A stretch of 46,227 nucleotides of DNA from a bacterium (GCA_046757165.1 JBHHXT010000019.1:1-46227); one strand, 5' to 3'. Positions 13,268-33,156 are shown, counted from the stretch's first letter. Notes: generated by a model from the sequence alone, not told the origin. Program-made: numbers and translations.

Positions 13268-13489
13268 TTATTTTCGTCTTTTTGAATTCAGCCAGAAGGC
13301 GATGAACGCGACAACGCTGAAAGGAAGGAGAGAGAGGAATGCAGCGCTAAGATAGTAGGTATTCAGCACTTTTGTGACAGAGGAGCCAAAACAACTGGGA
13401 CACCCCTGAACACTTTCAGAAGTCAGCAACAAGAAAGACAAAACGTAGATGGCGCTCAAACTTCTGACGAAGCGCTTCAAAACGGACAC
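13268..13489 (-). CDS. Small membrane protein with CPxC motif, last gene of the oxidase operon
   Basis: GTG start with GAGG RBS; signal/TM segment, CPSCFG, second TM, basic tail. Confidence 0.65.
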   Translation of the reverse strand: MSVLKRFVRSLSAIYVLSFLLLTSESVQGCPSCFGSSVTKVLNTYYLSAAFLSLLPFSVVAFIAFWLNSKRRK

Positions 13490-13506
13490 CGTATCAACCT
13501 CATGAG

Positions 13507-14220
13507 TTAGCTCAAATAAACCAGGACAAACAACACTGGCCAGATGGCGACGACAAAGTACCAGTACAAACCACAGAGTTCAGCCAGCGTGTCGCTGCGG
13601 GTGGAATAGGTCCTGGCTAAAGATTTCTTCAGGACGATGAGCAGGAACACCATCGCACCCGCCACATGCAGGCCATGACATCCGATCAGGGCATAAAATA
13701 TTCCGCCATAGGTGCTGGAGGTCAAAGTCAAACCGAACCGGATCAGGCGAACCCATTCGGAGCCTTGAATCAAGAGAAACGTGGCCCCTAAGCCGGCGGT
13801 CGCAATCAACCATTTGGTCATGGTCATGGACAGGTCTGCCCGGCTGGCCCGCATCGCTCGATTCATCGTGAAACCGCTGGCAAGCAGAAAAACCGTATTG
13901 ACCAGGGTCACCACGAGGGGAAGCATGGGTTGACCCGCAGGGGGCCATGTTTGGCTGTTGGCCCGCAGGATGAGAAAAACGCTGATCAGCCCGCCAAAAA
14001 ACATCACTTCCGCGCCGATGAACATGAGCAGCCCCAGAACCCCCTTGTTGACCGGCGCTTGCTGTACCGAAGCGAAACCGGGGTCTGCCGCGCCCTTCAA
14101 ACCATCGCTCTCGAGGCCGGAACTATGGCCATCATTTATCTCGGGCGTTGTCATTCTGGTCGCCATCGCTGCTGCCAATATTTGGGTTGATGTGTTTTCA
14201 TGTTTAGCGATTGTAGACAA
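13507..14220 (-). CDS. ctaE: Heme-copper oxidase subunit III (second paralog)
   Basis: GLLMFIGAEVMFFGGL, NTVFLLASG, FYALIGCHGLHV, LYWYFVVAIW. Confidence 0.88.
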   Translation of the reverse strand: MSTIAKHENTSTQILAAAMATRMTTPEINDGHSSGLESDGLKGAADPGFASVQQAPVNKGVLGLLMFIGAEVMFFGGLISVFLILRANSQTWPPAGQPMLPLVVTLVNTVFLLASGFTMNRAMRASRADLSMTMTKWLIATAGLGATFLLIQGSEWVRLIRFGLTLTSSTYGGIFYALIGCHGLHVAGAMVFLLIVLKKSLARTYSTRSDTLAELCGLYWYFVVAIWPVLFVLVYLS

Positions 14221-14485
14221 TATCTGGTATGAGCGAAATGGTCATCCCGATGAAGAGCAAGACCGGAATGATGGCAATGTAACGAATCAGTCGCTGCTCG
14301 AATTTTAGATGCATGAAATAGACGGCCACCAGTCCCGCTTTGACGGCAGCGACGAAAAAAATAAATGCCACTGTCAGTGGCGGTGAAAATGGCAAAAGAA
14401 CCGCTCCGACGCTGACAAACAGCAAAAGAAGCAGCCACGCCCAGACAGCGACATAGTTCGGATGCTCATGTTGAGTGTGTGACAT
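14204..14485 (-). CDS. ctaF: Cytochrome c oxidase subunit IV (CtaF/CyoD-like)
   Basis: Three TM helices; KAGLVAVYFMHLKFE signature. Confidence 0.85.
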   Translation of the reverse strand: MSHTQHEHPNYVAVWAWLLLLLFVSVGAVLLPFSPPLTVAFIFFVAAVKAGLVAVYFMHLKFEQRLIRYIAIIPVLLFIGMTISLIPDIVYNR

Positions 14486-14594
14486 ATTCTAACTCCTTTC
14501 GGGTAAACTTCGGCAGTTGGCTGTTGGCCTCGAGCTTGCTGATAAGGTTATTTGTCATCTCTTATTTTTTGTTCAACTGCTCAACAGCGGCCCC

Positions 14595-15185
14595 TCAATA
14601 CGAAAGATAAAGCAACGGAAACAGGAAAATCCAAACGACGTCAACGAAATGCCAGTACAGCCCTGCGTATTCCACCCGCTGCTGCGTTCTCGGCCAGAGC
14701 GTGCCTCTGACGGCCATAACGAAGAGCGCAAAGTTTGCGATAATGCCTGCCAGGACATGCAGGCCATGCAGCCCGGTCAAGGCGTAATAAAAGGCCCAAA
14801 ACATGCCGGACAGCGGCGTGAATCCCTGAGAGATTTCTATCGAGTATTCAACCGCTTTGACGCCCAGGAATGTCACTCCGAGTAAGACCGTGAACAAAAG
14901 GTAGGTCCGGGCCGACTTCCTATCTTCTTCGTCAATCGCCTGAAAGGCTTTTACCATGGTCAAGCTGCTGGTGAGCAGAATGACGGTATTGAAGGTGCCA
15001 ATTGCTGTGCTAACATGCTGAGCCATGTCAGCCCACGTGCCGGCACTGGCCATGCGGTAGAGAATATAGATCGCCAGGAAGCCGCCAAATACCATGATTT
15101 CAGAGGCTAAGAACCACCAGAGCGCGATTTTGCCTGACGGCGCTTGAGTTTGCGGATATTCCTCAACGGCGGAAACGGTGCCCAT
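14595..15185 (-). CDS. ctaE: Heme-copper oxidase subunit III (first paralog)
   Basis: WWFLASEIMVFGG, NTVILLTSS, TGLHGLHV, GLYWHFVDVVW. Confidence 0.92.
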   Translation of the reverse strand: MGTVSAVEEYPQTQAPSGKIALWWFLASEIMVFGGFLAIYILYRMASAGTWADMAQHVSTAIGTFNTVILLTSSLTMVKAFQAIDEEDRKSARTYLLFTVLLGVTFLGVKAVEYSIEISQGFTPLSGMFWAFYYALTGLHGLHVLAGIIANFALFVMAVRGTLWPRTQQRVEYAGLYWHFVDVVWIFLFPLLYLSY

Positions 15186-15243
15186 TCTGCTATCTCCCTT
15201 GTCTTAACATTAACGGTTCGGGTTTATTCTTCTTCAAGCTATG

Positions 15244-15322
15244 TCTGGTTCCAACGCTCTGCGTCCCTTTACTTGACGCGGAGCGTCAAATACTGGTTCC
15301 CACGCGGAGCGTGGGAACCAGA
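15244..15322. repeat. REP-like palindrome cluster between oxidase subunits I and III
   Basis: CTGGTTCCCACGC-GGA-GCGTGGGAACCAG (15293-15321), TTGACGC-GGA-GCGTCAA (15273-15289) and a partial copy at 15244. Confidence 0.7.
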
Positions 15323-15368
15323 CCGTGTAGGTGCGTGATCATCATACACCAAATCCTGCACCGAAGGA

Positions 15369-17102
15369 CTAGGCCGCGGCCGCGGTTTTCTTCGGTTCAT
15401 TCTGCGGCTGCCAATCCCGGCCATTGCCAGGCGAACTGTACTCGTACGGGCCATGATAAACCCTGGGCAGGGTAGCAAAATTGCCATGAGGGGGCGGCGA
15501 AGGCGCAGCAGCCCACTCCAGCGTGTTCGCCTGCCAGGGATTATCCTCCGCTCGTTTCCCTTTGAACAGGCTCCAGAAGAAATTGATCACAAAGGGAATC
15601 TGCCCGATGAAAAGCAGAATCGCGGCGATGGTGATGAGCTGATTGATCGGGCCAAAGGGCTTGAGAAAGTCATATTGCAACGGGTTGTAAATACGGCGCA
15701 TGTGGCCACCCATGCCCAGCACGAACATCGGGATAAACGTCAGGTTGAAAAAGATGATCGTAAACCAAAAATGGATTTTCCCGAGCCCCTCGTTCATCAT
15801 GCGGCCAAACATTTTCGGGAACCAGAAGTAGAGCCCGGCGAAGCCAGCCAGAAGGGCTGACGGAAAAAGGGTAAAATGAAAGTGAGCGACGACAAAATAA
15901 GTATCGTGAATGTAGATATCCACCGGCGCCGAGCCATTGAATATGCCTGTCACCCCACCGACGATGAACGTCAGAATCGTGCCGAGCGCAAAGAGCATCG
16001 GTGTGGGAAAACGCAGTGAACCGCCCCATAGCGTTGCCATGAAAGCAAAGATTACGATGGCAAATGGAACCGAGATCAGGATGGTGGTAATGCTGAAGGG
16101 CATCACCAACCGTGGGTCTATGCCGCTGACGAACATGTGATGCGCCCAGACCACGAAGCTGAGAACCCCGGCCACCAGGACTGAGTAGATAATGGTTTTG
16201 TACCCGAAAATCGGCTTGCGAGCAAATACTGGCAAGATTTCGAACAAAGCGCCCAGGCCGGGCAACAGGATCACATAAACCTCCGGATGCCCAAAAAACC
16301 AAAACAGATGCTGCCACAACAACGGGTCCCCGCCTCGATCAGCGATGAAGAACCCGGTGCCAACTGTACGGTCCAGCAGGAGCAAAATCGCCCCCGCGAT
16401 AAGCGGGCCGACGGACAGCATAAAAAGAACCGATGCAGTGATCTGCATCCAGACCATCAGGGGCAACCGGTACATCGTGAGGCCGGGGGCCCGCATGGTG
16501 ATGGTGGTAGTGAGGAAATTGATGCCGCCCATCAGGAAGGAGGTAAATTCCAACGCCAGTCCCAGTATCCAGAGATTCAGGCCCCAATTCACTCCCGTGA
16601 GCACGGGGTCTGCTGATAAGGGTGCGTAGCCCGTCCAACCAGCGGCCGCCGCACCCCCCGGGACGAAAAAGGAGGCGATCATCAACACCGAGCCGAGAAA
16701 GATAGTCCAGAAAGACATCATGTTTAGCCTCGGAAAGGCCATATCCGGTGCGCCAACCATCAACGGCAGCAGAAAGTTACCGAAGGCGCCCAGCAACAAT
16801 GGCATGGCGACGAAAAACACCATCAGGGTACCGTGCATCGTCACCAGTGCGTCATAGAATTCCGGCGGAATGATGCCGTTGACCACCGTCGGTTCCGGAA
16901 TCCAACCGGCACCGGGGACCGCAGTTTCAGGCCACGCGAGCTGCCAGCGCATGTAGTAGGCCAGCAGACCGCCAACGACAGCCATAAACAGGCCGAGAAA
17001 CATGTACTGCTTGGCAATGACTTTGTGGTCGATCGAAAAAATGTACGTGCGAAAAAAACTCAGCTCCTTGTGCTCAGCCGCGTGACGGACCTCGTCAGCC
17101 AT
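15369..17102 (-). CDS. ctaD: Heme-copper oxidase subunit I, A1 type, with atypical K-channel
   Basis: TMHG, PDMAFPRLN, WFFGHPEVY, WAHHM, AHFH and MRR: all six His ligands and the active-site Tyr are present. Confidence 0.96.
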   Translation of the reverse strand: MADEVRHAAEHKELSFFRTYIFSIDHKVIAKQYMFLGLFMAVVGGLLAYYMRWQLAWPETAVPGAGWIPEPTVVNGIIPPEFYDALVTMHGTLMVFFVAMPLLLGAFGNFLLPLMVGAPDMAFPRLNMMSFWTIFLGSVLMIASFFVPGGAAAAGWTGYAPLSADPVLTGVNWGLNLWILGLALEFTSFLMGGINFLTTTITMRAPGLTMYRLPLMVWMQITASVLFMLSVGPLIAGAILLLLDRTVGTGFFIADRGGDPLLWQHLFWFFGHPEVYVILLPGLGALFEILPVFARKPIFGYKTIIYSVLVAGVLSFVVWAHHMFVSGIDPRLVMPFSITTILISVPFAIVIFAFMATLWGGSLRFPTPMLFALGTILTFIVGGVTGIFNGSAPVDIYIHDTYFVVAHFHFTLFPSALLAGFAGLYFWFPKMFGRMMNEGLGKIHFWFTIIFFNLTFIPMFVLGMGGHMRRIYNPLQYDFLKPFGPINQLITIAAILLFIGQIPFVINFFWSLFKGKRAEDNPWQANTLEWAAAPSPPPHGNFATLPRVYHGPYEYSSPGNGRDWQPQNEPKKTAAAA

Positions 17103-17116
17103 ACTCTCCTCCTCAT

Positions 17117-17800
17117 TTAGTTGTCATTATCTGCAGGTTGCCAGTTCTCCTGCACCCAACTGGCGTAGGCTTGCTCAGAATGAACATAAAGAAAGCCGCG
17201 CATGGTGTAATGGCCATATCCACACAACTCGGCGCAAGCGATCTCATACTTGTCGGTTTCGGTCGCCTGGAACCAGGCTTCGATTTCACGGCCAGGCACC
17301 AGGTCCTGCTTCAGGCGCAGAACCGGGACAAAAAAACTGTGGATAACATCCTGGGAAGTGAGAATAAGCTTCACCACTTTGTTGGCCGGCACGTGAAGGT
17401 CGTTCTCCAGCGTGAGATCGTCGTCGCTACCAAACATGCCGTCCGGCCCGGGGTAGGTCATGATCCAGTTGAACTGCTTGCCCTCCACTTGAATGGTCAC
17501 CGCGCTGACTGGCATGTCCCCTTTGATTTGGTCATAGGCTTTCGCGCCGGCAAAATCAATCCACAGGTCGAACACGAGCACGATGGCAGCTGGAATCAAG
17601 ATCCAGCCCGTTTGTGGCCACGCCCTGCCGTGCACAAATTTCGCCCGCTGCCCCTCTCGACGACGGTACCGAAACAGAAAATAGAAAATCAATCCCTCGC
17701 CTAGCAGAAATCCGATTCCGACGATCCAGAAGATCAGATAGAACACCGAGTCAATCTCACCGCCAAAGGTCGAGATGTTCTGCGGGAACAAATCAAACAT
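17117..17800 (-). CDS. ctaC: Cytochrome c oxidase subunit II (CuA), no fused cytochrome c
   Basis: Two TM helices; DVIHSF and CAELCGYGHYTM CuA motif. Confidence 0.95.
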   Translation of the reverse strand: MFDLFPQNISTFGGEIDSVFYLIFWIVGIGFLLGEGLIFYFLFRYRRREGQRAKFVHGRAWPQTGWILIPAAIVLVFDLWIDFAGAKAYDQIKGDMPVSAVTIQVEGKQFNWIMTYPGPDGMFGSDDDLTLENDLHVPANKVVKLILTSQDVIHSFFVPVLRLKQDLVPGREIEAWFQATETDKYEIACAELCGYGHYTMRGFLYVHSEQAYASWVQENWQPADNDN

Positions 17801-18103
17801 GGTCTCACACCTCCAGGTTTATTCGTATCTTGCTCGAGCCAATGCACCAAACGCGATTCCGCCCCTGGCGATTATATTACATCTTCAATGCAAACAAATA
17901 CTTGCTTTATAGAAAGTCGATGGGACGATCTTGGCTCCTAAAGTGGCAAACCGTGTCAAAGGAACCAGATGGACAAATTCGGACTGCGTTATCTGCTTTA
18001 AATGGTGAATAAGATAAGCGAATTGCGGATGAATGTCAAGTATTTTTTGACGATAATGTCATCTTATAGTCACATGAAGCTTGATGGCCACCCTGCAAAC
18101 GGC

Positions 18104-19285
18104 CTATTGGGCCTCATGACAGTAGCCGCAGAACCCTGCGCCCGCCTGGCGTGTGTTGGTATGACAGGAGTAGCACAGGGCATTGTCATCATCATGCAGA
18201 GACGCGTCATCCCCGATCTGGTCTGCGAAGCCCGTCTCGTGGGTTTTGGGGTTGGTCCCCTGCACGCCGTCAAAATCGGTGTGGCAGAGTAAACAGGTGG
18301 GATCATCCCCCTCGGTGCTATGGCAGGCCGCGCAATTTTCAATGTCTCGCCTGGCGAGCTCAGCATGGCGGCCGCCGCCGGTGCCGACGACCCCTGCAAG
18401 TGCCCCCCAATCGGGCCCGCCATGCCAGACAGGTTTGCCCGCCACGTCCACGCCTTCGGCTTCGTGGCACGTCTGGCAAAAATTCTGAGTTTCGTGACAG
18501 ACGGCACACTCCTGCGACCGGCCCTGCGCTTCAAGAGGATGAGTGAGTCTAAAATTGAGATCGTGCACGCGGGAGATAAGCAGACCCTTTGTGCCCCCGC
18601 CAAGCGAGGGGAACATCGGTGTTTGTGTATCGAGCACGGGCGCCGAGGCCGTCATGAACAAAGACGCCCCCTGATGACACTCTGCGCAATCGTTTCGCGT
18701 GTGACAAACGCTGCACGCCTCCTGATCGATACGGGCCAGATTTTTGTGTGTCACAAGATAATCCGAGCTATGGTCAACCGGCCTGAGGGTGAGGGTATTG
18801 GTGTGGCAGTTCACGCACTCGAGTGTCGCCTGCTGGTTGTTGTGACACCTGGCGCAGTCTGGCATCTGTGCCTTACTGTGATCGTCAGCGTAGTCTACCC
18901 TGTCCAAATTCTTGTGGCAGGTTTCGCAGGCCACTTTCTGCTCGAGAACATGAAATTCATGGTTGAACAGAAGCGTGTTTTCGACAGCGGGCAGCGGCTG
19001 CCGGGTCTCCTCGTCCTCGAAATGGCAGAGCGTGCACGCTTCTTCATCCTCGACCTCATGGCATCCCTGACACTCTTCCTTTGCAGGCAGCAAATTATCG
19101 CTGGCCAGCGTGCTCTGCTCAGCACGGGTATGACAATCCGCACAAGCTGTCTCTACCTCCTTCTGGTGAAACTTGTGCGAAAATTTGATCACTTCTTTTG
19201 ATTGCTTCAGCGGACTTTGGGATAAAACGTGCCAGCTAAGTGCCAATGTGATGGTTATCACTCCCAACCAGAACTTGTTCAGCAT
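18104..19285 (-). CDS. Periplasmic 14-heme cytochrome c (c3/c7-like repeats)
   Basis: Signal peptide; 14 CxxCH counted; FSHKFH and FNHEFH distal-His motifs. Confidence 0.9.
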   Translation of the reverse strand: MLNKFWLGVITITLALSWHVLSQSPLKQSKEVIKFSHKFHQKEVETACADCHTRAEQSTLASDNLLPAKEECQGCHEVEDEEACTLCHFEDEETRQPLPAVENTLLFNHEFHVLEQKVACETCHKNLDRVDYADDHSKAQMPDCARCHNNQQATLECVNCHTNTLTLRPVDHSSDYLVTHKNLARIDQEACSVCHTRNDCAECHQGASLFMTASAPVLDTQTPMFPSLGGGTKGLLISRVHDLNFRLTHPLEAQGRSQECAVCHETQNFCQTCHEAEGVDVAGKPVWHGGPDWGALAGVVGTGGGRHAELARRDIENCAACHSTEGDDPTCLLCHTDFDGVQGTNPKTHETGFADQIGDDASLHDDDNALCYSCHTNTRQAGAGFCGYCHEAQ

Positions 19286-19345
19286 AATCCCTCACCGGTT
19301 TGCCTCAGATTCGTTTTCTTCCTCATCATGTCCCTGCTCGACAGC

Positions 19346-20614
19346 TTATAAGCTGCGCTTGAAAAACCAATAGCTTGCTTTGACAAAGATTCGAAAATCG
19401 CTGCTCGAGAACCGATTGCGGATGCCCTGGCCGAGGATGTCGATGGCAAGCTGCTTGCGCGGACGGTAGTTGAGACCGACACTCCCGGTCAGGGAGGTGT
19501 GGGTCTCGAGGTCGTCATCGAACAGCGTGTAACGAGCCAGCCCGGTCGTGGCTACCAGTCCCAGTTTCGGTGTCACGGGATAATTCAAGGCGGCGTATGC
19601 GCCGTTGTTTTGGCCGCCATACCCTTTTCTGAAATTGTAGCCGAGCGAGCCGTACTTTCCTCTAACGCCCAAACCAAAACGAACCGTTTCGTCGCCGTCA
19701 TATTTTTGAACGGCGAGATTTCCGTTCAGGAACCAGCGCTGGCCGAACCGGTAACTGCCGCGCACGCCGAACTCCTGTGTGGTGTTTTGCTCAAACACCG
19801 TGAAGATGGAATTTGCTTCGATGAGTGGTGCACGGTGGATAAATTCACCACTCAATGTCAGTTTATCAGAAGCTGCCAGCCGGAGTTCAACCTGCCCGCG
19901 GCGAACACGCTCTTGCTCGAGGTCATAATCGAGCCGGCCATAGAGGTTCAACTTGCGCGCGAAACGCCGGTGGAGGTCCAGGCCAAGCAGCCGTTGCTCC
20001 AAACTCTCGAAGGTGATTTTTCTGCCGGTATACCGACCGGGCGCTGAGTAAGCAGCAGGCGCCCGGTTTCTTTGCATGAAACTAACCAGGACCTTCGTAC
20101 CGGCCAGCTTCGTGGTACTCACCCGGAAGCCGAACGCATGTCGGTCATCCCAGTTGCCGATTTCGATTTCATTCGAAAACGGCACCAGGATGCCTGCGAA
20201 GCCTCCTATCTTGACACTCTCTCCGATGCGGAAGTTGAGATCGATGCCGTCAACGGTGCCGTATGCAACGCCAGAATAGACCCGCTGCCGACCCAGGCGA
20301 ACACGCTGGACCAGGCCCTTGCGTGCGTGCCACTGAAGGTAAGTGTGATAGATTCGCGGAATGGGATCGTCCTCCGCGGACTTTGCCAAATCTTGTGACA
20401 GCAGGCCATAAAAGTGAAAAGACACGCGCCTGGAAGCAAGATTCCCAATGGTGACCTGTGCTGTTTGGTACACCCGTGCGTGCGTCTCGGAAAGCGAGTC
20501 TGCCGGGTTTCTCTCCCAGGAGTAGACCGTGGTGGAGAAGCGACCACTCACCGACTGCCCATAGACCTGCGTGGTCAGAGCTAACGCGAGCAAAATGTAG
20601 ATCAATCTCTTCAA
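19346..20614 (-). CDS. Outer-membrane beta-barrel (porin of a porin-cytochrome complex)
   Basis: Signal peptide; amphipathic strands throughout; RVRLGRQ..VDG motif; terminal strand RIFVKASYWF; flanked by two multiheme cytochrome genes. Confidence 0.8.
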   Translation of the reverse strand: MKRLIYILLALALTTQVYGQSVSGRFSTTVYSWERNPADSLSETHARVYQTAQVTIGNLASRRVSFHFYGLLSQDLAKSAEDDPIPRIYHTYLQWHARKGLVQRVRLGRQRVYSGVAYGTVDGIDLNFRIGESVKIGGFAGILVPFSNEIEIGNWDDRHAFGFRVSTTKLAGTKVLVSFMQRNRAPAAYSAPGRYTGRKITFESLEQRLLGLDLHRRFARKLNLYGRLDYDLEQERVRRGQVELRLAASDKLTLSGEFIHRAPLIEANSIFTVFEQNTTQEFGVRGSYRFGQRWFLNGNLAVQKYDGDETVRFGLGVRGKYGSLGYNFRKGYGGQNNGAYAALNYPVTPKLGLVATTGLARYTLFDDDLETHTSLTGSVGLNYRPRKQLAIDILGQGIRNRFSSSDFRIFVKASYWFFKRSL

Positions 20615-20671
20615 GACCCTGGTCCCCTTTCTTATGTGTGAAGTGCGTCGTACGTCCGACTCACCTTATTT

Positions 20672-22376: not shown

Positions 22377-22393
22377 TTCTCATCCCCTGGGGT

Positions 22394-24497: not shown

Positions 24498-25861
24498 TGC
24501 TCCACTCCTGCTCGTTTGCTCGCGGACTCCGGCAAAGGCTGCTCAGGCAAATACGATTGCAACCGGCTGGCAACTTCTCGCACACTGTGTTGCCGGCCTT
24601 CCTGAATTTCCCAAATTGAAACCAACGGAAAGTACTTGGAGAATAAAACATAGCCCAGAACAAACACCGCAAGGCCCCAGGCAAAGAGACTCCACTCGGT
24701 GAGCGAGGGGATGTACATTCCGGTCGGATAGGGTAATCTTGGATTCGCCAGAGACGGCACGACAATGATGAGGCGCTCCAGCCACATGCCGATCACAACG
24801 GCAATCGAGGCCACCAGAATCCCCGGAATCTTCTGTGTTTTCGGGTTGGCGAGAATGGTTATCGGAACCACGAAATTGCAAAAGATCATCAGCCAGAAAA
24901 ACGGCGACATCTTTCCGACGAACTTGTAGAGGAACACTCTCATCTCGTTAGGCTCGTGCCCGTAATATCCCGTCAGATATTCAGAGAAAGTAAAATAGCC
25001 CCACAACATCGACATGATCAGCAGCAGCAGCCCCAAATACTTGAAATGAATCTCTTTCAGGTAGGGCTCCAGCTTGAATGCCTTGCGAAACGCAATCATG
25101 GCAATCAACAAGGCCGCGATACCGGAGAAAATGGCGCCGACCACAAAATAGGGACCGAAAATCGTGCTGTGCCAACCGGGCTGAATGGTCATAGAAAAGA
25201 TGAACGAAATGACTGTGTGAACAGAAACGGCAATCGGAATCACCATGACCATCAGGATGTTGATGGCTCTTTCGAGCACTTTCTTCTGGTGTTCCGTGCC
25301 CTGCCAGCCCCAGGCCAGGAATTCGTACAGCCAGCGGGGCCGCGTGCCGCGATCCCGCAGGATGGCGATATCCGGAATCATGGGAAGATACAAATAGACC
25401 GTACTGGCGCCAAAATAAGCGGTGATACTGGTCACATCCCAGAGCAGGGGGGACTGCAGCCGCCCATCGGTGAAAAGATGCATCATGCGGTCAGGCCGGC
25501 CCAGATCGAGGATGGGATGCAGGCCTCCGATCGCCAAAACGATGGCCGTGATGACCTCTGCCATCCGGGTGATCGGACGCCGCCATTCCGCTTTCGAGAG
25601 TCTCAGAATCGCCGAAATCAGGGTTCCAGCATGGCTGATACCAATGAAGAAGACGAAGTTGATAATATAAAACCCCCAGGAGACGGGCTGATTGAGCCCG
25701 GTGACGCCGAGGCCAAGCACAACTTGCCTGATGTAAGTATAGACAGAGAAAGCGATGATGGCTAACAGGACACAAACCGTGATGTAAAACCCCTTGCCCG
25801 TGTGCTCGATGGGACGTATCAGCACTTCATCTTCGAATGAATCCTTGCGCAGTTCAGACAT
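24494..25861 (-). CDS. nrfD: NrfD/PsrC-family quinone-interacting membrane subunit (ActC/QrcD-like)
   Basis: WGFYIINFVFFIGISHAGTLISAIL, WRRPITRMAE, DLGRP, SPLLWD, SVHT, GMWLER. Confidence 0.92.
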   Translation of the reverse strand: MSELRKDSFEDEVLIRPIEHTGKGFYITVCVLLAIIAFSVYTYIRQVVLGLGVTGLNQPVSWGFYIINFVFFIGISHAGTLISAILRLSKAEWRRPITRMAEVITAIVLAIGGLHPILDLGRPDRMMHLFTDGRLQSPLLWDVTSITAYFGASTVYLYLPMIPDIAILRDRGTRPRWLYEFLAWGWQGTEHQKKVLERAINILMVMVIPIAVSVHTVISFIFSMTIQPGWHSTIFGPYFVVGAIFSGIAALLIAMIAFRKAFKLEPYLKEIHFKYLGLLLLIMSMLWGYFTFSEYLTGYYGHEPNEMRVFLYKFVGKMSPFFWLMIFCNFVVPITILANPKTQKIPGILVASIAVVIGMWLERLIIVVPSLANPRLPYPTGMYIPSLTEWSLFAWGLAVFVLGYVLFSKYFPLVSIWEIQEGRQHSVREVASRLQSYLPEQPLPESASKRAGVEQ

Positions 25862-26545
25862 TTATTCCACCTCTGACAGATAAAAAACTTTCGGTTCGGT
25901 GCCCAAATCTTCCAGCAATTGAAAGGCGCGCGGGTTTCTCCTGAGCTTGCTGACCTGGCTTTTGGGATCGTCGAGATCGCCAAAGTAAATCGCTCCGGTC
26001 GGGCAGCTTTCCATACAGGCCGGGATGTAATCTCCCTCTCGCAGCTCGCGGCCTTCAACAGCAGCCTGCTCTTTGGCTATCTGCAACCGGTGAATACAAA
26101 AGGTACATTTTTCCACCACGCCGGCCGGGCGCAGCGACACATCCGGATTGCAGGCCGCTCGCATTTCCTCCGGCCATTCGGGTCGGCTCCAGTTAAATGA
26201 TTTCACCGTGTAGGGACAGGCGACCTGGCAGTATCGACAGCCGATGCATTGCGGAAAAATCTGCGTGACGAGGCCCTCATCATTGAGATAGGTCGCACGA
26301 ACCGGACACACTTTGGTACACGGCGGGTTATCACATTGAAAACAGGGCCGAGGCATGTAGCGGACTTTCACATCAGGAAATTCCCCCTCGTAAGTCGTGA
26401 GGATATCCATCCAAAGCATGGTGCGCCCGCGGTCCGATTCATCCGGCCCGACGATGGCGACGTTGTTTTCGATCTTGCAGGCCGCGACACATTCCCCGCA
26501 GCCGGTGCACTTGTTCAAATCGATGACCATACCCCATCTTGGCAT
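25862..26545 (-). CDS. 4x[4Fe-4S] ferredoxin subunit (NrfC/PsrB/QrcC-like)
   Basis: Start MPRWGMVIDL at 26545; CTGCGECVAAC, CFQCDNPPCTKVCP, CIGCRYCQVACP, CTFC...CMESCP. Confidence 0.93.
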   Translation of the reverse strand: MPRWGMVIDLNKCTGCGECVAACKIENNVAIVGPDESDRGRTMLWMDILTTYEGEFPDVKVRYMPRPCFQCDNPPCTKVCPVRATYLNDEGLVTQIFPQCIGCRYCQVACPYTVKSFNWSRPEWPEEMRAACNPDVSLRPAGVVEKCTFCIHRLQIAKEQAAVEGRELREGDYIPACMESCPTGAIYFGDLDDPKSQVSKLRRNPRAFQLLEDLGTEPKVFYLSEVE

Positions 26546-26546
26546 A

Positions 26547-29030
26547 CTAGGCTCTCTCCTTTCCGGTGACTTTTTCGATCGCAATCTTCGTACTGATCAG
26601 CGAAGGAGCGCCACGCAAGTAATCATAGTCCTCCACAACAATCTCATAGGGATTGACACCGATGCCTCTGGCATATCGCCCATAAGCTGAATGACCCAGC
26701 CCGAAAGGAATATAGGCGACCTCAGGCATGACCCCGGGGAGTATCTTTGCCTGGACCAGTAGACTGCCTTCCGAAGAAGTCACTTTGACCATGTCACCGT
26801 CGTGAATCCCATAGCTGTGGGCGGTTTCCGGATTGAGCTCAATCCAGGACTGCCAGTACTCGCGCGTGAGCAATCCAAACAATTCTTGCACCAAAGGCAG
26901 GTTGCTCCCCATGCCATTGACGTTGGTAATCAAATGATAGGTGAGCAAATGCAGATCAAATCGCGCGCCATTTTTTGAGGCCGCAGGGGGTTCATAGTGC
27001 GGCAGGTAGACAAGATCGCCACGCGCATCTATTTGCCAGCGCTGCAACAGCGAATCAAGGGCGCTCTCGAACCCATCCGACTGCCGGATTTTCGATTCGA
27101 TCTCGTGTTTCAAAACCTGCGAATAGAATTCAAACCTCCTGGAAGGTGTCGCAAAGACCTTGTCAAAGTCCGGCTCCTGCGGAAAGGGATCGAGCCATCC
27201 CCCTTTTTCAAGCAGAACCTCCCAGAACTCTTCAAAGCCGGTATAGTCAAACAACTGCCACCCCCGTTCTTTCAGGAATGTCAGCCAGGCCTCGTCCATA
27301 CGCTCGGTGAAAACGGTGCCTGCGCCGGTCTTGTATACGCCCTCTAAGCGCGTTTGGAGATACGCTTTGTAGTCCGGCCAGGGCAACGCAGAGGCCAGCG
27401 TCCCGCCCAGACGCTTGGCCATGCCCAGTATAGAGTCTCCCAGGTGACGGCTGTCGTACAAAGGCTCGATCACCGGTTGTTGCATGCCAAAATGGGAGAA
27501 CTCCACCAGGGGAATATTATCGATGACGTCAAACTTCTCCAGGAAGGTATGGTCGGGCAGAATCAGGTCCGCGTACAGGGTGGTCTCATCCACAAAGGGC
27601 GAAAAGCTTACGATGAACGGAATGTTGTGTAGCGCCTCAACCACGCCACCCTGATTGGTAGAATGAAACACTGGATTAGCCTCTGCCAGAAGCAGAACAT
27701 CCACAGGCACCTGCTGTTTTTCGGAGATGAACTTCGGTAGATTGACCGGTGTCTCGCCCGAAAAACAGAATCGATCATCCAGCTCGGTGAGCCCGGGTCT
27801 GGCCAGACCCGACCGCGCTACTTTGTCCGGCTCGAGTTTCGACAATTCTGCAAACGGCGGGGGCTTCTGCAGAGAGATAGGCTTTCCATTCGCGAAATTG
27901 CCTTTCAGGGCATTCAAACACTCGACAGCCCAGGCCGTGTAAAGGCCCTTGTTGCTGCTGTGGGCCTGTCCGCCGGACAAAGCCAGAGCAGAGCCCTCAG
28001 CGCCAAACTCCCTGGCCAGCTCAACGATTCTCTCTGCCGAAACGGATGTTATTTCGGCCACCTTCTCCGGATAATACTCTTGCGTGACCAGAGACTTGAA
28101 CCCCCGGTATGAATTCCCGGCATCATCCTGCCAGTCATAAAACCCAAAGCACCTGTCTTGCACGAAGTTCTTGTCGTACCGGCCATCCTTGATCAGGACG
28201 CTCGCGATGCCCAGAGCTAAAGCCGCCATGGTCCCGGGTTTGATGGCAACCCATTTATCAGAAATGCCGGCAGTGCGCGAAAGACGAGAGTCGATGTGGA
28301 CAATCTTTGTCCGCTGTCCATTTTCGCGATTTCTGAGCTCGGAATAGAGTTGATTGAAGCGAACCGGGGATGGGCCAACATCCAGCACATCCGCCCCAAA
28401 GTTGATCAACAGCCTGATGGTTTTGAAATTGTAACTGAGAGGCTTCTTATGACCTTGTGTGATATAGGTTGCCAGGGCTGAGATGTCCCCGGATTCAGAA
28501 ACAAATAAATTCGGCGACCCGAACCCGGACATGAATCTCGAGAGCAAGTCGGAGAGCAGGGTGTTCACATGACCGGACCAAAATGCGAGCTTGTGTGTTT
28601 CATCTTTCTGCTGTAGCGCCTGCAACCGGGAGACAACCATCTGCATGGCCTCCTCCCAGGAGATGCTCTGCCACTGTCCCTCGCCACGACTGCCAACGCG
28701 TTTCAGCGGTGCTTTGATGCGGTCCGGATTGAATAACGCTTCGATGCCGGCTTCGGCCATCGGACAGATGCTGCCCCGGTTCACCGGATGAATTGGATTG
28801 CCCAGAATCCGCACTGGAATCCCGTCGATGAGACGGACCTTGATCCCGCAGCCGCCCGGACAAAGTGTGCAGACACTGGTTTTCCAGGTTTCAAGGCGGG
28901 GGGCGCCTCCAACTTTTTCGTACAGCTCATCCGGCACCGACCATATCGAATCGCAGCCCAGTCCTGCCATCGCAGCGCCGGCAGTGGTGAGGCCGAGGTA
29001 TTGCAAGAACTCTCTACGAGTGATCTCCAT
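26547..29030 (-). CDS. Tat-exported molybdopterin-oxidoreductase-family subunit (QrcB/ActB1/PsrA-like)
   Basis: TRREFL Tat motif; CX2CX3CX27C FS0 motif; PDRIKAPLKR; ADLILPDHTFLE; C-terminal ELNPETA..GIHDGD domain. Confidence 0.9.
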   Translation of the reverse strand: MEITRREFLQYLGLTTAGAAMAGLGCDSIWSVPDELYEKVGGAPRLETWKTSVCTLCPGGCGIKVRLIDGIPVRILGNPIHPVNRGSICPMAEAGIEALFNPDRIKAPLKRVGSRGEGQWQSISWEEAMQMVVSRLQALQQKDETHKLAFWSGHVNTLLSDLLSRFMSGFGSPNLFVSESGDISALATYITQGHKKPLSYNFKTIRLLINFGADVLDVGPSPVRFNQLYSELRNRENGQRTKIVHIDSRLSRTAGISDKWVAIKPGTMAALALGIASVLIKDGRYDKNFVQDRCFGFYDWQDDAGNSYRGFKSLVTQEYYPEKVAEITSVSAERIVELAREFGAEGSALALSGGQAHSSNKGLYTAWAVECLNALKGNFANGKPISLQKPPPFAELSKLEPDKVARSGLARPGLTELDDRFCFSGETPVNLPKFISEKQQVPVDVLLLAEANPVFHSTNQGGVVEALHNIPFIVSFSPFVDETTLYADLILPDHTFLEKFDVIDNIPLVEFSHFGMQQPVIEPLYDSRHLGDSILGMAKRLGGTLASALPWPDYKAYLQTRLEGVYKTGAGTVFTERMDEAWLTFLKERGWQLFDYTGFEEFWEVLLEKGGWLDPFPQEPDFDKVFATPSRRFEFYSQVLKHEIESKIRQSDGFESALDSLLQRWQIDARGDLVYLPHYEPPAASKNGARFDLHLLTYHLITNVNGMGSNLPLVQELFGLLTREYWQSWIELNPETAHSYGIHDGDMVKVTSSEGSLLVQAKILPGVMPEVAYIPFGLGHSAYGRYARGIGVNPYEIVVEDYDYLRGAPSLISTKIAIEKVTGKERA

Positions 29031-29090
29031 ACAATCGCTCCTGAATCTGGCTCTTATTCGTCATGGTCTAATCCACCACCTGTCCTCAAG

Positions 29091-29585
29091 TCAACGGTGA
29101 CACGCATAACAATCATTGGAAACCTCGCGCGTTTCATGACAATCCATGCACCATGCCATCGTTATTTCCTGAACGGGTGCGCCCACCGGCGTTGTCAGGG
29201 TTCCGACGTCGCCATGGCAGACCGTACACTCCAACTCGCCAAGCCTGACGTGCCGGCGATGAGAGAAGTAGGCGTAGTCCGCCACGCGATAGATTTGCCG
29301 CCAGGGGATTTTCGTCTTTTCGGTAACAAATTGAAGTAACGCCAGTTCTGCCTCGCTTTCGGTCATGGCTTCCTCATGGCACTCGGCGCAAAGATCGATA
29401 TTCGGGATAGAAGCCCGTGGATTCTCTTCGGCGTATTGATGGCAGTCCAGGCACTCCATGTCATTCTCTTCTACATGTATGCTGTGGCTGTAGGCAATGG
29501 GCTGCTTCGTGTCCTGCCTTTTGAGGAACCCGGCTACCATGAATGTCAACACAACGGCGAGAACAATGGATAGGGTCTTTTTCAT
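29091..29585 (-). CDS. Membrane-anchored pentaheme cytochrome c (ActA/QrcA-like)
   Basis: N-terminal TM; QPIAYSHSIH; five CxxCH; FSHRRH; TMAWCMDCH; NDCYACH. Confidence 0.92.
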   Translation of the reverse strand: MKKTLSIVLAVVLTFMVAGFLKRQDTKQPIAYSHSIHVEENDMECLDCHQYAEENPRASIPNIDLCAECHEEAMTESEAELALLQFVTEKTKIPWRQIYRVADYAYFSHRRHVRLGELECTVCHGDVGTLTTPVGAPVQEITMAWCMDCHETREVSNDCYACHR

Positions 29586-29696
29586 GTCTCAACGGTCCGT
29601 AACGTAGGTTGTTAGGCTGTTAGCCTACAGTCTGTCTACCTGAATAATGTGCAAGAGACCGAAGACGAGCCTCGATCTCTTGCGTCGTGGCGGCCC

Positions 29697-32600
29697 CTAC
29701 TTGACCAGGGCCATTTTCTTTATCTCGCTAAAGCCATTGACTGACAGCTTGTACAGGTAGATGCCGGAGCTCAGGTTGGCCGCCCCAAAATCGATCGTGT
29801 GCGCACCAGCGTCCAGGTTCTCATCCACCAGTGTTGCGACCTCCTGACCCAGCAGGTTGTAGATTTTCAGAACCGTGTGACCCGCATCGGGAAGACTGAA
29901 CGTAATCGTTGTCCTCGGATTGAACGGATTGGGATAGTTCTGATTCAACGCGTAGGTCCCGGGGATCTGCGGGCCCGTTTCAGACACGCTGCTGATCAGG
30001 GGGAAGTTCAACGTGTAGACGGTAGCATCGAAGCCATCCCCCGGGTGCCCGGAGCCTTCGTTGTCAAATATCTCAGTCGCAAACTGGACTGAACCCTCTG
30101 AAACGACGCTAAAATCATCGCCATCGCTGGTCAAGGCTCTCTTGAATTCAACCGTCCAGACGCCATTATCATATTTCCCGGCAGCATGAACAGAAGCGCG
30201 ATTTCCGGTAGGCAGGGCCAGGATTCTACCCGGAATAACCGCACCGGTGGCAAATGCGGCCGTGCTGTCAAATTCAACTGCCAGCTCGGTGGTGCCGGGC
30301 GAGACGCCAAAAGGATCGAATGCGTTGAGCGCATCCTGGTCCGCCATCAGGAACGTAACATTCGCGCCCGGGTCTGTAGCGGCCATGAAGCTGGGAAATC
30401 CGGAGCCGACCGGCAGATTCTTCGAATCAATGCCGCTGCCCGCGTCGCCGTGGCGGCCGGTGGTGTCCCAGAATTTGTCATCCGCGAACCCCAGCGGATT
30501 GGTGCGCGCGGCCTTCCAGTGCCAGACATCAACCTTCCCGACCTGCGTCTGCATGGCGATTCCCTGATGGCACATGGTTGTGCAATTCGCGCCATCGTCG
30601 CCGTTCTGGCCCATATCCCAAATAATGCCGACCCGGTCTTCATCGCCGGCCTGACTCCAGCTCGTCCCGTCGAAACTCCACTGGGCCTTGTTCACATTTT
30701 CTGTCGAACTCTTGTCCGGCCATTTCGCCAATACATAAAGATAATCCGAGTCCACCATGGACTTGATCGTCAAGCCTTTGGCGGTCGTGATCATGTCCGA
30801 GGTCCACTCGCCGTTCGCCTCGACACCATCCAGAGTGGGGGTGCCGATTGTGGCGGTGAGGGAATTATCAGAGGGCAACTGCGGAAAATTCATGGTGAAA
30901 ACCGTGGCGTCAAAGCCATCTCCAGGATGGCCAGAGCCCTCATTGTCAAAAATCTCGGTAGAAAAATCTACCGACCCGCCCGGAACAACTTCGAAGTCGT
31001 CGCCATCGCTGACCAACGGTCTGGAGAATTCGACGGTCCACTTGCCATTGTCATACTTGCCAGCCACGCGAACAGATGCACGATTTCCTGTTGGCAAACT
31101 CAGGATTCTGCCCGGGATGACCGCTCCTGCGGAAAATGCCGCCGTGCTGTCAAACGCCACCGCCACCTCAGCCGTACCCGGCCCAACGTTGAAAGGATCG
31201 AACGCGTTCAACGCCTCCTGATCGCCCATCAAGAAATCTACATTCCCGCCCGGGTCGGAGGTCGCCATGAAGCTCGGGAATCCGGACCCGACCGGCAAAT
31301 TCTTTGTATCGATACCGGAGCCCGTATCGCCGTGGCGACCCGTCGTGTCCCAGAATTTGTCGTCAGAATAACCTAATGGATTCGTGCGGGCAGATTTCCA
31401 GTGCCAAACATCCACCTTGCCGATTTGTGTCTGCATGGCAATCCCCTGATGGCACATGGTCGTACACGTCGCGCCATCGTCGCCGTTCTGCCCCATGTCC
31501 CAGATGATGCCAACGCGGTCCTCATCGCCTGCCTGACTCCAGCTCGTGCCGTCAAAGCTCCACTGACTCTTGGCAATGTTTTCGGTCGAGCTCTTGTCCA
31601 TCCACTGAGCAAGGACATACAGATTGTCCTGGTCGATCATCGCCTTGATGGTCAACCCCTTCTCGGTCGTAATCATATCGGAAGTCCACTCGCCCGGAGA
31701 GTCAACCCCGTCCAAATTCGGAGATCCGATTGCGGCCGTCAGGGAGGTTTTGGGCGTAGAGGGCGTCGGGAATTGCATGGTGTAAACCGTGGCATCAAAC
31801 CCATCACCCGGGTGACCAGAGCCCTCATTGTCAAATATCTCGGTAGAAAAATCTACCGACCCGCCCATGACCACGTCGAAATCATCTTCATCCCCATCCA
31901 GCACCCGGCGGAATTCCACGGTCCAGATGCCATTGTCGTACTTCCCGGCCGCGTGCACCGAAGCGCGATTGCCGGTGGGCAAGCTCAGAATTCTGCCGGG
32001 AATGACGGCTCCGGCGGAAAATGTCGCGGTGCTGTCAAACGCCACCGCCACCTCAGCCGTACCCGGCCCAACGTTAAAAGGATCGAACGCATTCAACGCA
32101 TCCTGGTCACCCATCAAAAAATCTACATTCGCGCCCGGGTCGGAGCCCGCCATAAAGCTCGGGAATCCCGACCCGACCGGCAAGTTCTTTGTATCGATAC
32201 CGGTGCCCGTGTCGCCATGACGGCCAGTCGTATCCCAGAATTTATCGTCCGAGTATCCCAAGGGATTCGTGCGGGCGGATTTCCAATGCCAAACGTCTAC
32301 CTTGCCGATTTGTGTCTGCATGGCAATCCCCTGATGGCACATCGTCGTACACGTCGGGCCGTCGTCGCCGTTCTGCCCCATGTCCCAGATAATGCCAACG
32401 CGGTCCTCATTCCCCGTCTGACTCCAGGCGGTTCCATCAAAGCTCCATTGGTTCTTGGCAGTGCTTTCGGATGAGGACTTATCAGCCCAGCTTGTCAGAA
32501 CGTAAAAATACGTCTCATCCACCATGGCCTGGATGGTCAACCCCGCTTGCGTGGTAATCGCATTCGAGGTCCACTCGCCCGCGGAGGCGACGCCATCCAA

Positions 32601-32702
32601 AACGGGTGTCCCCTCTGTGACATTGACCGTGGTTTGTGCCAAGAGACCGTAAGCCGATAGCAGCACGGCCACGACACTCAACAGTACCAGTTGCTTCTTC
32701 AT
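29697..32702 (-). CDS. Secreted protein: three ethylbenzene-dehydrogenase-gamma-like (DOMON) domains, each with CTTMCH, plus T9SS/FlgD-type C-terminal domain
   Basis: Three ~295-aa repeats (EDRVGIIW, CTTMCH, DVWHWK, WTVEF.R.L); tail ALNQNYPNPFNPRTTITF...SGIYLYKL...KKMALVK. Confidence 0.85.
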   Translation of the reverse strand: MKKQLVLLSVVAVLLSAYGLLAQTTVNVTEGTPVLDGVASAGEWTSNAITTQAGLTIQAMVDETYFYVLTSWADKSSSESTAKNQWSFDGTAWSQTGNEDRVGIIWDMGQNGDDGPTCTTMCHQGIAMQTQIGKVDVWHWKSARTNPLGYSDDKFWDTTGRHGDTGTGIDTKNLPVGSGFPSFMAGSDPGANVDFLMGDQDALNAFDPFNVGPGTAEVAVAFDSTATFSAGAVIPGRILSLPTGNRASVHAAGKYDNGIWTVEFRRVLDGDEDDFDVVMGGSVDFSTEIFDNEGSGHPGDGFDATVYTMQFPTPSTPKTSLTAAIGSPNLDGVDSPGEWTSDMITTEKGLTIKAMIDQDNLYVLAQWMDKSSTENIAKSQWSFDGTSWSQAGDEDRVGIIWDMGQNGDDGATCTTMCHQGIAMQTQIGKVDVWHWKSARTNPLGYSDDKFWDTTGRHGDTGSGIDTKNLPVGSGFPSFMATSDPGGNVDFLMGDQEALNAFDPFNVGPGTAEVAVAFDSTAAFSAGAVIPGRILSLPTGNRASVRVAGKYDNGKWTVEFSRPLVSDGDDFEVVPGGSVDFSTEIFDNEGSGHPGDGFDATVFTMNFPQLPSDNSLTATIGTPTLDGVEANGEWTSDMITTAKGLTIKSMVDSDYLYVLAKWPDKSSTENVNKAQWSFDGTSWSQAGDEDRVGIIWDMGQNGDDGANCTTMCHQGIAMQTQVGKVDVWHWKAARTNPLGFADDKFWDTTGRHGDAGSGIDSKNLPVGSGFPSFMAATDPGANVTFLMADQDALNAFDPFGVSPGTTELAVEFDSTAAFATGAVIPGRILALPTGNRASVHAAGKYDNGVWTVEFKRALTSDGDDFSVVSEGSVQFATEIFDNEGSGHPGDGFDATVYTLNFPLISSVSETGPQIPGTYALNQNYPNPFNPRTTITFSLPDAGHTVLKIYNLLGQEVATLVDENLDAGAHTIDFGAANLSSGIYLYKLSVNGFSEIKKMALVK

Positions 32703-32790
32703 AATAGCCTCCTAATAAATGATTAGCAGCAGATTATTTCGTTTTGCTTTGGCTTTGGCCAAATCTCCTACCCCATAGATAGCCCCGAAT

Positions 32791-33156
32791 TCAGGCTAGA
32801 GCTCTGATGATGGTTTCTCTTAGCGTAAGCAGATTCACCGGCTTCATTGCATAGTAGATGACCCCTTCCTGCAATACTCTCCCCCCCAGTTCCGTTGACG
32901 GATCATTGGAAATCACAACAAGCGGTATCTTTGGCCTGATTCTGCGAATGATCTTTACCATTTTGAGGCCGTCCAGCTGCGAACTTTCCAGGCTGTAGAT
33001 GACCACACCATAATCGTGCTCCAGGAGTTCGAGAAGCAAATCAGCTTCATTATCGACTCTGCAAAAGCCGATGTCACGGTCCGCCAGCGAGGCCACAAGG
33101 GTGTTGCAAAGGTCTTGGTCCTCGCAAAAAGCCAGAATTCTTGCCTCCACAATCAA
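32791..33156 (-). CDS. Single-domain response regulator, atypical (pseudo-receiver)
   Basis: REC pattern with LDGLKMVK, VVIS and YAMKP, but the phosphoacceptor position reads VVIYS rather than D. Confidence 0.75.
   Translation of the reverse strand: MIVEARILAFCEDQDLCNTLVASLADRDIGFCRVDNEADLLLELLEHDYGVVIYSLESSQLDGLKMVKIIRRIRPKIPLVVISNDPSTELGGRVLQEGVIYYAMKPVNLLTLRETIIRALA

Follow-up and report, generated by a model that had tools for sequence, protein, structure and literature searches.

How might a bacterium of the Fibrobacteres-Chlorobi-Bacteroidetes (FCB) group connect its quinone pool with electron donors or acceptors lying outside the cell? This question is raised by a gene cluster at 13268-33156 of a 46,227-nucleotide stretch of bacterial DNA, here called the window, which is the entire contig C19 of a 6.09 Mb genome assembled in 531 contigs (estimated completeness 99.98%). 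The cluster comprises 18 successive genes, all on the minus strand, and a first-pass annotation of the window had proposed that it encodes a complete, wired chain for extracellular electron uptake or bidirectional extracellular electron transfer (EET). We found that three units lie side by side in the cluster, each of which is conserved alone.

Unit A would consist of a heme protein of the EB_dh type, displayed by the type IX secretion system (T9SS), a QrcABCD-like complex interacting with menaquinone, and periplasmic four-domain and c554-like cytochromes. Unit B would be a 22-strand barrel that houses a 14-heme cytochrome and bears a heptaheme lipoprotein on its outer face, and unit C an operon for a CuA-type aa3 cytochrome c oxidase. 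We tentatively propose that the units serve a branched chain around a periplasmic cytochrome c pool, with outward or branched flow, a reading that we rate at slightly less than an even chance. The Qrc-like complex would resemble alternative complex III (ACIII) in exchanging electrons between the periplasmic cytochromes and menaquinol. When O2 is present, the periplasmic cytochromes would pass electrons to the aa3 oxidase, and when it is absent, the conduit would deliver them to surface heme proteins and from there to acceptors outside the cell, for example Mn(IV)/Fe(III) oxides or humics. We infer both the electron exchange between units A, B and C and the presence of heme in the EB_dh domains.

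Gene content and lineage

Searches of Pfam and NCBIfam gave family matches for 17 minus-strand open reading frames (ORFs) within 13507-33156. Together with a small ORF conserved in position, they make up the 18 genes counted in the first-pass annotation, and all of the modules that it had named were present and correctly typed. The same-strand run is wider than the cluster, extending from 12512 to at least 42299. Our motif count over the cluster proteins returned the same 37 heme motifs as before (32 CxxCH, 4 CX3CH and 1 CX4CH): 14 CxxCH in the 14-heme protein, 6 CxxCH and 1 CX4CH in the lipoprotein, 3 CxxCH and 1 CX3CH in the c554-like protein, 4 CxxCH in the four-domain cytochrome, 5 CxxCH in the QrcA-like protein and 3 CX3CH in the EB_dh protein. 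The motifs are not chance occurrences, since all 14 CxxCH are invariant among the 14-heme homologues and CX3CH is invariant or near-universal in EB_dh domains. Between 13100 and 33090, promoter-like sites (14 seen, 12.7 +/- 3.4 expected) and terminator-like sites (27 seen, 21.8 +/- 4.9 expected) were near expectation and no minus-strand terminator-like site lay within an intergenic gap, so these counts carry no operon information.

In alignment searches with the 14-heme protein, the nearest loci belonged, by their record titles, to candidate division KSB1, and remoter ones to Calditrichota, Ignavibacteriales, Bacteroidota, Gemmatimonadota, Fidelibacterota and Acidobacteriota. The FCB-group placement made earlier is consistent with the KSB1 relatives and with the T9SS, for which both a sorting domain in the window and PorU on contig C13 (843.8 bits, cut-off 420) score above their cut-offs; T9SS tails are numerous in the genome. 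The DNA of the window is present in four DNA runs of one study, labelled as hydrothermal vent metagenome. KSB1 (Zhuqueibacterota) has been described, in the available part of the source (PMC11683472), as mostly facultatively anaerobic heterotrophs, with autotrophy by the Calvin-Benson-Bassham cycle in one order.

The porin-cytochrome conduit

At the core of unit B, the gene for an outer-membrane beta-barrel of 422 aa (19346-20614) lies next to that for a periplasmic 14-heme cytochrome c of 393 aa with a Sec signal (18104-19285); these and all other gene coordinates below refer to the minus strand. The two genes adjoin each other in all 13 fetched relatives and in 46 of 48 loci from several phyla, and the two exceptions start at a contig end. 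In 16 aligned sequences of the 14-heme protein, all 14 CxxCH and 11 further His are invariant. The AF2 model of the barrel (pLDDT 86.3) has 22 strands. It belongs to no curated family: no match to MtrB_PioB (PF11854) was obtained for the barrel at E <= 0.01, or elsewhere in the genome, and the barrel gave a sub-threshold match to OMP_b-brl only. Foldseek proved unusable for assigning it to a family, returning generic large barrels only (FimD usher, AlgE, porins; TM 0.3-0.55), and an ESM Atlas search returned unnamed clusters only, from Ignavibacteriota and Bacteroidota. The 14-heme protein likewise gave no match to the DmsE/MtrA family (TIGR03508); two proteins of unit A matched that family below threshold, the c554-like one at 16.7 bits and the QrcA-like one at 23.4 bits.

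The first-pass annotation had made its reading depend on whether the barrel accommodates the cytochrome in models, and the predicted complex suggests that it does. The barrel and the 14-heme cytochrome scored 0.68 as a complex, whereas the best of three controls scored 0.00. A score of 0.68 was attained by 116 of 157 solved complexes and by 2 of 215 mismatched pairs, counts that apply here only roughly, as our own alignments were used; solved Mtr-type complexes may also have helped the pair to its score. At least 68% of the contacts agreed between runs, with a partner pLDDT of at least 67. The approximately 300 contacts are spread over the whole barrel sequence and over cytochrome residues 150-374, and include the invariant stretch 261-274 of the barrel against the conserved stretch 313-316 of the cytochrome. 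Since they come from strands all round the barrel, the contacts show the pattern of a cytochrome inside the lumen, and we predict on the basis of this model that the 14-heme cytochrome lies inside the barrel.

The third member, a heptaheme lipoprotein (20902-21810; TIGR01904 47.1 bits, above the cut-off of 27), is present in 35 of the 48 conduit loci. Its lipobox-like Cys, which recurs in 10 of 12 distinct homologues, makes it the likely outer-face partner. As for the other neighbours, c554-like genes occur in 21 of the 48 loci, NapC/NirT-like genes in 18, a 723-aa multiheme cytochrome in 16, T9SS-sorted multiheme cytochromes in 11, Rieske proteins in 9, cytochrome b in 8, and Cox genes and a full Qrc-like unit in 1 each. 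The conduit of relatives is flanked by NapC-like, DUF2339 and 723-aa cytochrome genes, none of which has a homologue in the genome of the window; the closest inner-membrane partner left to the conduit there is the Qrc-like complex beside it.

In one relative, multiheme cytochromes of 931 and 559 aa with T9SS domains flank the conduit (G009, L025:1200-3995 and L025:17431-19110), and homologues of the 931-aa protein occur in 11 of the 48 loci, across several phyla. In another relative (G011, L031:16697-19621), a single 974-aa frame contains four copies of the heptaheme module, and three further KSB1-titled loci (L060-L062) show five tandem matches to it; such tandem modules would give surface cytochromes of about 28-35 hemes.

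The surface heme protein and the Qrc-like unit

The cluster opens with a receiver-only response regulator of 121 aa (32791-33156; PF00072, 38.6 bits), a homologue of which heads EB_dh or cytochrome clusters in several relatives. It is followed by the EB_dh protein (29697-32702), which has 1001 aa, a signal peptide and a C-terminal T9SS domain, and matches PF09459 in three stretches (254.3 bits). Its sorting domain scores above cut-off in both families (Por_Secre_tail 36.8 bits; TIGR04183 38.8 bits, cut-off 23) and the sorting machinery, represented by PorU, is encoded in the genome, which together mark the protein as putative T9SS cargo. The three repeats of about 295 aa are mutually 82-83% identical and carry one CX3CH apiece. 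When 20 copies of the domain, taken from the window and relatives, are compared, C96, C100, H101, W116, H117 and K119 are invariant in all 20, and the residues inside the CX3CH vary. A Met seven residues past the motif and a Lys are kept in the close group only; Met and Lys are presumably the heme b ligands of EB_dh-type domains.

PF09459 is a heme-b domain family in Pfam, and the model of a single repeat (pLDDT 62) matched heme-b subunits best in Foldseek, NxrC (7b04_C, 6.2e-08) and EbdC (2ivf_C, 2.5e-05). At the sequence level, a search of the repeat against the PDB was near-blank (NxrC, 0.051), so any ligand mapping from that search is unreliable; the protein also has a weak match to CbsA (2.6e-06). 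A profile of the copies retrieved 1714 representatives at E <= 0.001 and 1104 at E <= 1e-10. CX3CH occurs in 144 of the 150 best of them, and 15 of these 150 have at least three CxxCH as well. The conserved Cys-Cys-His with variable spacing residues, and the better retention of a covalent heme by a secreted protein, suggest that the CX3CH motifs may bind heme covalently. The InterPro name of the domain, as we take it, also cites cytochrome c-552, and c-type members may exist already.

Downstream of the EB_dh gene lie four genes with the QrcABCD architecture, namely an anchored multiheme subunit A, a MopB-like B, an Fe-S C and an NrfD-like D. The QrcA-like pentaheme cytochrome c (29091-29585; NF041781 104.9 bits, below the cut-off of 180) has an N-terminal membrane anchor, with one hydrophobic segment at residues 3-21. 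The QrcB-like molybdopterin-family subunit (26547-29030) carries a twin-arginine translocation (TAT) signal and scored 310.7 bits for QrcB (cut-off 440), 256 bits for PhsA and 249 bits for ArrA. Next come the QrcC-like four-cluster Fe-S subunit (25862-26584; NF041782 304.2 bits, cut-off 400; DsrO 182 bits) and a 455-aa NrfD/QrcD/DsrP-like integral membrane subunit that would interact with quinone (24494-25861; PF03916 129.6 bits; DsrP 118 bits; QrcD 44.5 bits, cut-off 570), in which we counted eight strong hydrophobic segments and, by eye, two weaker ones.

In the PDB, the QrcB-like subunit was closest to ArrA (6cz7, 5.6e-72, full-length), followed by PsrA (2.9e-37), with ActB of ACIII at only 1e-14 to 1e-16. 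Its FS0 Cys motif is intact (C54, C57, C61, C89) and both pterin-binding Pfam domains are present. In the pairwise alignments, the ArrA Cys that we take to be the Mo ligand lands in a two-residue gap after residue 180, and its PsrA counterpart, presumably also the ligand, aligns to Ile183. As judged from these alignments, the subunit appears to lack the Mo-ligand Cys, and ligation by Ser or Asp is possible.

Unit A continues with a periplasmic cytochrome of four class-I cytochrome c domains (23006-24301; PF00034 99 bits in four stretches), whose true start is probably the Met at residue 40 and which is weakly like QcrC, CcoP, SoxX and c550/c551. It is followed by the c554-like tetraheme cytochrome (22394-22984; PF13435 93.4 bits; NF043010 111.9 bits, below the cut-off of 400) and a 158-aa stand-alone cyclic-nucleotide-binding (cNMP) domain protein (21900-22376; PF00027 37.8 bits). 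The last is found at the same position of the unit in five relatives (G002, G003, G006, G012 and G014). QrcB-like orthologues occur in 12 of 40 relatives, and the order QrcA-B-C-D-like, four-domain cytochrome, c554-like cytochrome and cNMP protein, often with a second four-domain cytochrome, recurs in ten; in one of the relatives (G017), the contig stops after the first four-domain cytochrome, ahead of the c554-like position. Of 11 relatives, 6 encode an EB_dh protein no more than 2.5 kb upstream of the QrcA-like gene, and 8 do so when the distance is extended to 7 kb. Two paralogues of the cNMP protein are encoded elsewhere in the genome (C45:11947-12417 and C455:163-633; 59% and 58% identity).

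Support for a coupling of unit A to unit B comes from L068, a locus of a Fidelibacterota metagenome-assembled genome and the only one of the 48 conduit loci with a full Qrc-like unit, in which the two are fused into nine same-strand genes: the c554-like cytochrome, the QrcA-D-like subunits, the four-domain cytochrome, an EB_dh lipoprotein, the barrel and the 14-heme cytochrome. Intergenic gaps there are tens of bases. The EB_dh gene (L068:7601-8623), which encodes a 340-aa lipoprotein with CX3CH, directly precedes the barrel gene at a distance of 47 bases, a position held in other genomes by the heptaheme lipoprotein gene; at this locus it replaces the outer cytochrome.

The oxidase operon

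Unit C encodes what its sequences identify as an A-family CuA-type aa3 cytochrome c oxidase, with subunits I, CuA-bearing II, III and IV all present. Subunit II (17117-17800; TIGR02866 152.6 bits, above the cut-off of 147.7) has the CuA His/Cys/Cys/His/Met pattern and no fused cytochrome c domain, so the oxidase needs a separate cytochrome c donor. The other genes encode subunit I (15369-17102; PF00115 474.7 bits; TIGR02891 607.3 bits, below the cut-off of 670.75), a first subunit III (14595-15185; PF00510 83.9 bits), a caa3-type subunit IV (14204-14485; TIGR02229 49.9 bits, above the cut-off of 37.25) and a second, subunit III-like protein (13507-14220; PF00510 86 bits). A small hydrophobic ORF of up to 73 aa closes the operon (13268-13489; GTG/TTG start at 13489 or 13480). 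It has no family match, and we counted it as a real gene because it is kept directly after the second subunit III gene in six relatives (G003, G004, G008, G010, G012 and G037).

One contig from run X4 (16884-18137) spans the junction between the subunit II and 14-heme genes. A second short repeat or a variable hairpin lies at 15254-15321, in the gap separating the genes for subunits III and I. Read depth there is 70-90, compared with about 24, several ends are loose, and run X4 shows a variant that skips 50 bases.

One chain or three units

Several observations weigh against our proposal, on coupling as well as on direction. The relatives holding a close orthologue of oxidase subunit I (75-87% identity) number nine; seven of them also have the barrel, on the same contig in only one (G004), and in all seven fetched loci the oxidase operon stands alone (six genes, including the small ORF where the stretch reaches), with no member of unit A or B in its flanks. 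The Qrc-like unit and the barrel share a contig in three of the ten relatives having both (G002, G012 and G021), at 16-29 kb; the gene set at the A-B join differs in relatives, and in G003, G004 and G008 the fetched flanks of either unit hold no member of the other. None of the four Qrc-like subunits reaches its NCBIfam equivalog cut-off. The genome also has other respiratory complexes: bc-type complexes, a canonical ACIII-caa3 cluster on contig C76 (L093:2844-15815), with a fused 992-aa ActB bearing a TAT-variant signature followed by a caa3-type oxidase operon, and a third A-family oxidase on C227, with heme O and heme A synthase genes. With these oxidases at hand, that of the window is not needed for ordinary respiration and the window chain would be additional.

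The A-B join itself also lacks independent support. The 287-bp gap between the lipoprotein and barrel genes contains a 135-bp interspersed repeat (20739-20873, assigned no strand) with an internal palindrome, which looks like an element of the miniature inverted-repeat transposable element or repetitive extragenic palindromic type. Dozens of copies (87-96% identity) lie on other contigs, and its depth is 560-640 against about 23 in the flanks (about 25-fold). The listed contigs from all four runs end at 20809 and 20832, and none bridges the join; many copies of the repeat lie inside other contigs, which indicates that the assembler does cross them. A misjoin with a contig bearing a NapC-like gene was rejected, as the genome has no such homologue.

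These observations would suit three self-sufficient units that rearrangement has placed side by side, a mobile repeat lying where they meet; the Qrc-like unit, with its cytochromes and EB_dh protein, would serve another periplasmic or surface redox task, and the conduit and oxidase would each use partners encoded elsewhere. We consider this distinctly unlikely, even though every unit is conserved alone, mostly on separate contigs in relatives, and the genome could supply other partners through its bc-type and ACIII complexes. L068 tightly fuses units A and B in another phylum, three more genomes hold both within 16-29 kb, and the barrel is also present in 9 of the 11 relatives with unit A; moreover, a surface heme protein encoded with a periplasmic and inner-membrane complex needs a route across the outer membrane. 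The relatives' assemblies are fragmented, so separate contigs do not prove distance. Of the complete wired chain claimed in the first-pass annotation, the coupling of A to B and the predicted fit of the cytochrome in the barrel are supported, and the mostly separate occurrence of the units in relatives, an unlinking that it had named as contrary evidence and that is partly seen here, counts against the rest.

Unit A could also be self-sufficient in a different sense, if the molybdopterin-family subunit were a working Mo/W enzyme of the Arr/Psr/Phs kind and the unit a periplasmic reductase or oxidase of a soluble arsenic or sulfur compound, not a Qrc/ACIII-like relay. The full-length ArrA match far above ActB, the TAT signal, the intact FS0 motif and the two pterin-binding domains are what such an enzyme would show, and arsenite oxidase genes have been reported in KSB1 metagenome-assembled genomes (MAGs) in the available portion of PMC10732223. 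We nevertheless regard this as very improbable: QrcB is the best NCBIfam match and the extra pentaheme and large NrfD subunits follow the Qrc/ACIII pattern. In addition, the Cys that we take to be the Mo ligand is missing in both pairwise alignments, with ArrA and with PsrA.

Direction of electron flow

As the first-pass annotation stated, direction is not readable from the sequence, and no computation favored uptake over outward transfer. The chain could equally run inward, and our slight lean towards outward flow is not settled by anything computed. It derives from the lack of RuBisCO together with the description of KSB1 as facultatively anaerobic heterotrophs, from the neighbors of the conduit family, mostly of quinol-oxidizing types (NapC/NirT-like, Rieske/cytochrome b), from the reports of this conduit type in metal reducers and on anodes, and from the weak likeness of the four-domain cytochrome to the oxidase donors QcrC and CcoP.

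For inward flow, the surface EB_dh protein or the heptaheme lipoprotein would oxidize Fe(II), Mn(II), a reduced mineral or a cathode and pass electrons through the conduit and the periplasmic cytochromes to the aa3 oxidase, with a side branch through the Qrc-like complex into the menaquinone pool. The oxidase operon comes directly after the 14-heme gene of the conduit, both here and in G004. In the rus operon of Acidithiobacillus ferrooxidans, an outer-membrane cytochrome and a periplasmic cytochrome are encoded with coxBACD. Cytochrome c554 feeds periplasmic electrons to quinone. Qrc, among the closest named families of unit A, likewise passes them to quinone according to the part of PMC6303296 available, and ACIII has been proposed, in a source likewise available in part, for uphill flow in Mariprofundus. 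The EB_dh-like FoxC/CbsA proteins of Sulfolobales have been proposed for Fe(II) oxidation in the available text of PMC13741234, which gives the CbsA heme +400 mV; this fits inward flow better than our proposal. Four named close KSB1 relatives, also a point on this side, are MAGs from an Fe-/Mn-oxidizing tunnel biofilm, in which genes were called for reductases of nitrate, oxygen and iron and for oxidases of arsenite and iron (PMC10732223, as far as its available part goes). The hydrothermal vent origin of the runs holding the window DNA points the same way.

We nonetheless judge inward flow to be unlikely, if a serious contender. No RuBisCO match was found in the 99.98% complete genome, and the ATP-citrate-lyase domain gave one marginal, partial match (28.8 bits, positions 30-85 of 177), which we did not use in judging autotrophy; a reverse-flow branch would thus have no obvious use. 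The free-standing state of the oxidase operon in seven of seven loci, with 75-87% identity across families, suggests a vertically kept housekeeping unit. We had entertained an oxidase dedicated to the conduit and dropped it, the operon being free-standing and equally similar in other genera. The conduit family otherwise sits beside NapC-like, Rieske/cytochrome b and T9SS multiheme genes, as in metal reducers, and Ignavibacteria with this type of conduit have been reported as metal reducers and on anodes.

Comparison with known systems

The conduit belongs to the known porin-cytochrome (Pcc) kind. As in the Pcc clusters of Geobacter and Ignavibacterium album, the barrel gene has as neighbors a gene for a multiheme cytochrome exported via Sec and one for a cytochrome of the outer membrane whose CXnCH motif is atypical. 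In I. album, the periplasmic IALB_1838 has 400 aa and 14 heme motifs, and the outer-membrane member has the atypical motif (Shi et al. 2014, PMC4245776, from the part available); the 393-aa protein here, also with 14 motifs, fits this published description, on which the assignment to the Pcc kind is based. Unlike the Pcc clusters of that report, within its available part, the conduit here has a Qrc-like unit on one side and an oxidase on the other, and heme proteins sorted by T9SS are associated with it. The working principle, a multiheme cytochrome insulated in a barrel with an outer-face cytochrome, would be that of MtrCAB, MtoAB and PioAB, whereas the proteins belong to other families, with no MtrB_PioB or DmsE/MtrA match. 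The MtrB barrel has 26 strands, in contrast to the 22 predicted here.

The quinone unit is a relative of Qrc and ACIII. It shares with QrcABCD, as portrayed in the accessible text of Duarte et al. (2018, PMC6303296), four separate subunits, of which A, B and C have their best NCBIfam matches in Qrc, and apparently the absence of the Mo-ligand Cys. It differs in having five hemes instead of six, in keeping the FS0 motif, and in its partners: here an aerobe-capable FCB bacterium supplies class-I and c554-like cytochromes, whereas Qrc works with cytochrome c3 in a sulfate reducer. The pentaheme protein and the MopB-like/Fe-S/NrfD module with an oxidase nearby recall ACIII (ActABCDEF) associated with aa3/caa3 oxidases, making a quinol:cytochrome c role plausible; unlike ACIII, B and C are separate genes (fused in ActB), there is one NrfD-like subunit and not two (ActC and ActF), and ActD, ActE and ActF are missing. 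As for the EB_dh protein, FoxC/CbsA of Sulfolobales offer, in the available part of PMC13741234, the precedent of an EB_dh-type heme domain outside the cytoplasmic membrane and encoded near a heme-copper oxidase. The protein here, in contrast, is bacterial and sorted by T9SS; it has three domains in tandem, whose invariant CX3CH is suggestive of covalent heme, and would reach the oxidase only via an outer-membrane conduit.

What we did not find in print is the encoding of T9SS-sorted heme proteins, both EB_dh-type and multiheme, with an outer-membrane conduit, and a large EB_dh subfamily with a conserved CX3CH. Literal string matching in open-access text retrieved no paper linking T9SS to multiheme cytochromes or EET. 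A broader proposal, which we regard as doubtful, is that EB_dh-fold domains form a distinct class of cell-surface cytochrome, with covalent heme bound via CX3CH, exported by T9SS or as lipoproteins, and serving a Pcc conduit, itself wired to a Qrc-like quinone complex, as its outer redox terminal; FCB bacteria (KSB1, Fidelibacterota) would then have a T9SS-dependent EET for which the Mtr and Geobacter models offer no equivalent. The target of the surface system could be Fe/Mn minerals or, more speculatively, secreted oxidative enzymes, by analogy with the cytochrome domain of cellobiose dehydrogenase, which serves lytic polysaccharide monooxygenases.

KSB1 is an uncultured group, common in sediments, vents and Fe/Mn-rich biofilms, whose part in metal cycling is known from marker-gene hits only. 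The cluster supplies a concrete, testable wiring diagram for these bacteria. If the proposal is true, FCB bacteria would own a route for electron exchange with minerals that the marker sets of iron-gene surveys would partly miss.

Other features of the window

A short way upstream of the cluster and on its strand, 33585-36356 encodes a 923-aa T9SS-sorted protein made up of nine DUF5666 repeats. Outside the same-strand run, the gene at 8117-9613 encodes a 498-aa protein that matches TackOD1 (Thaumarchaeal output domain 1) with 190 bits in this bacterial genome, and it adjoins genes for a GT2 glycosyltransferase and a TolC/HlyD-like pair.

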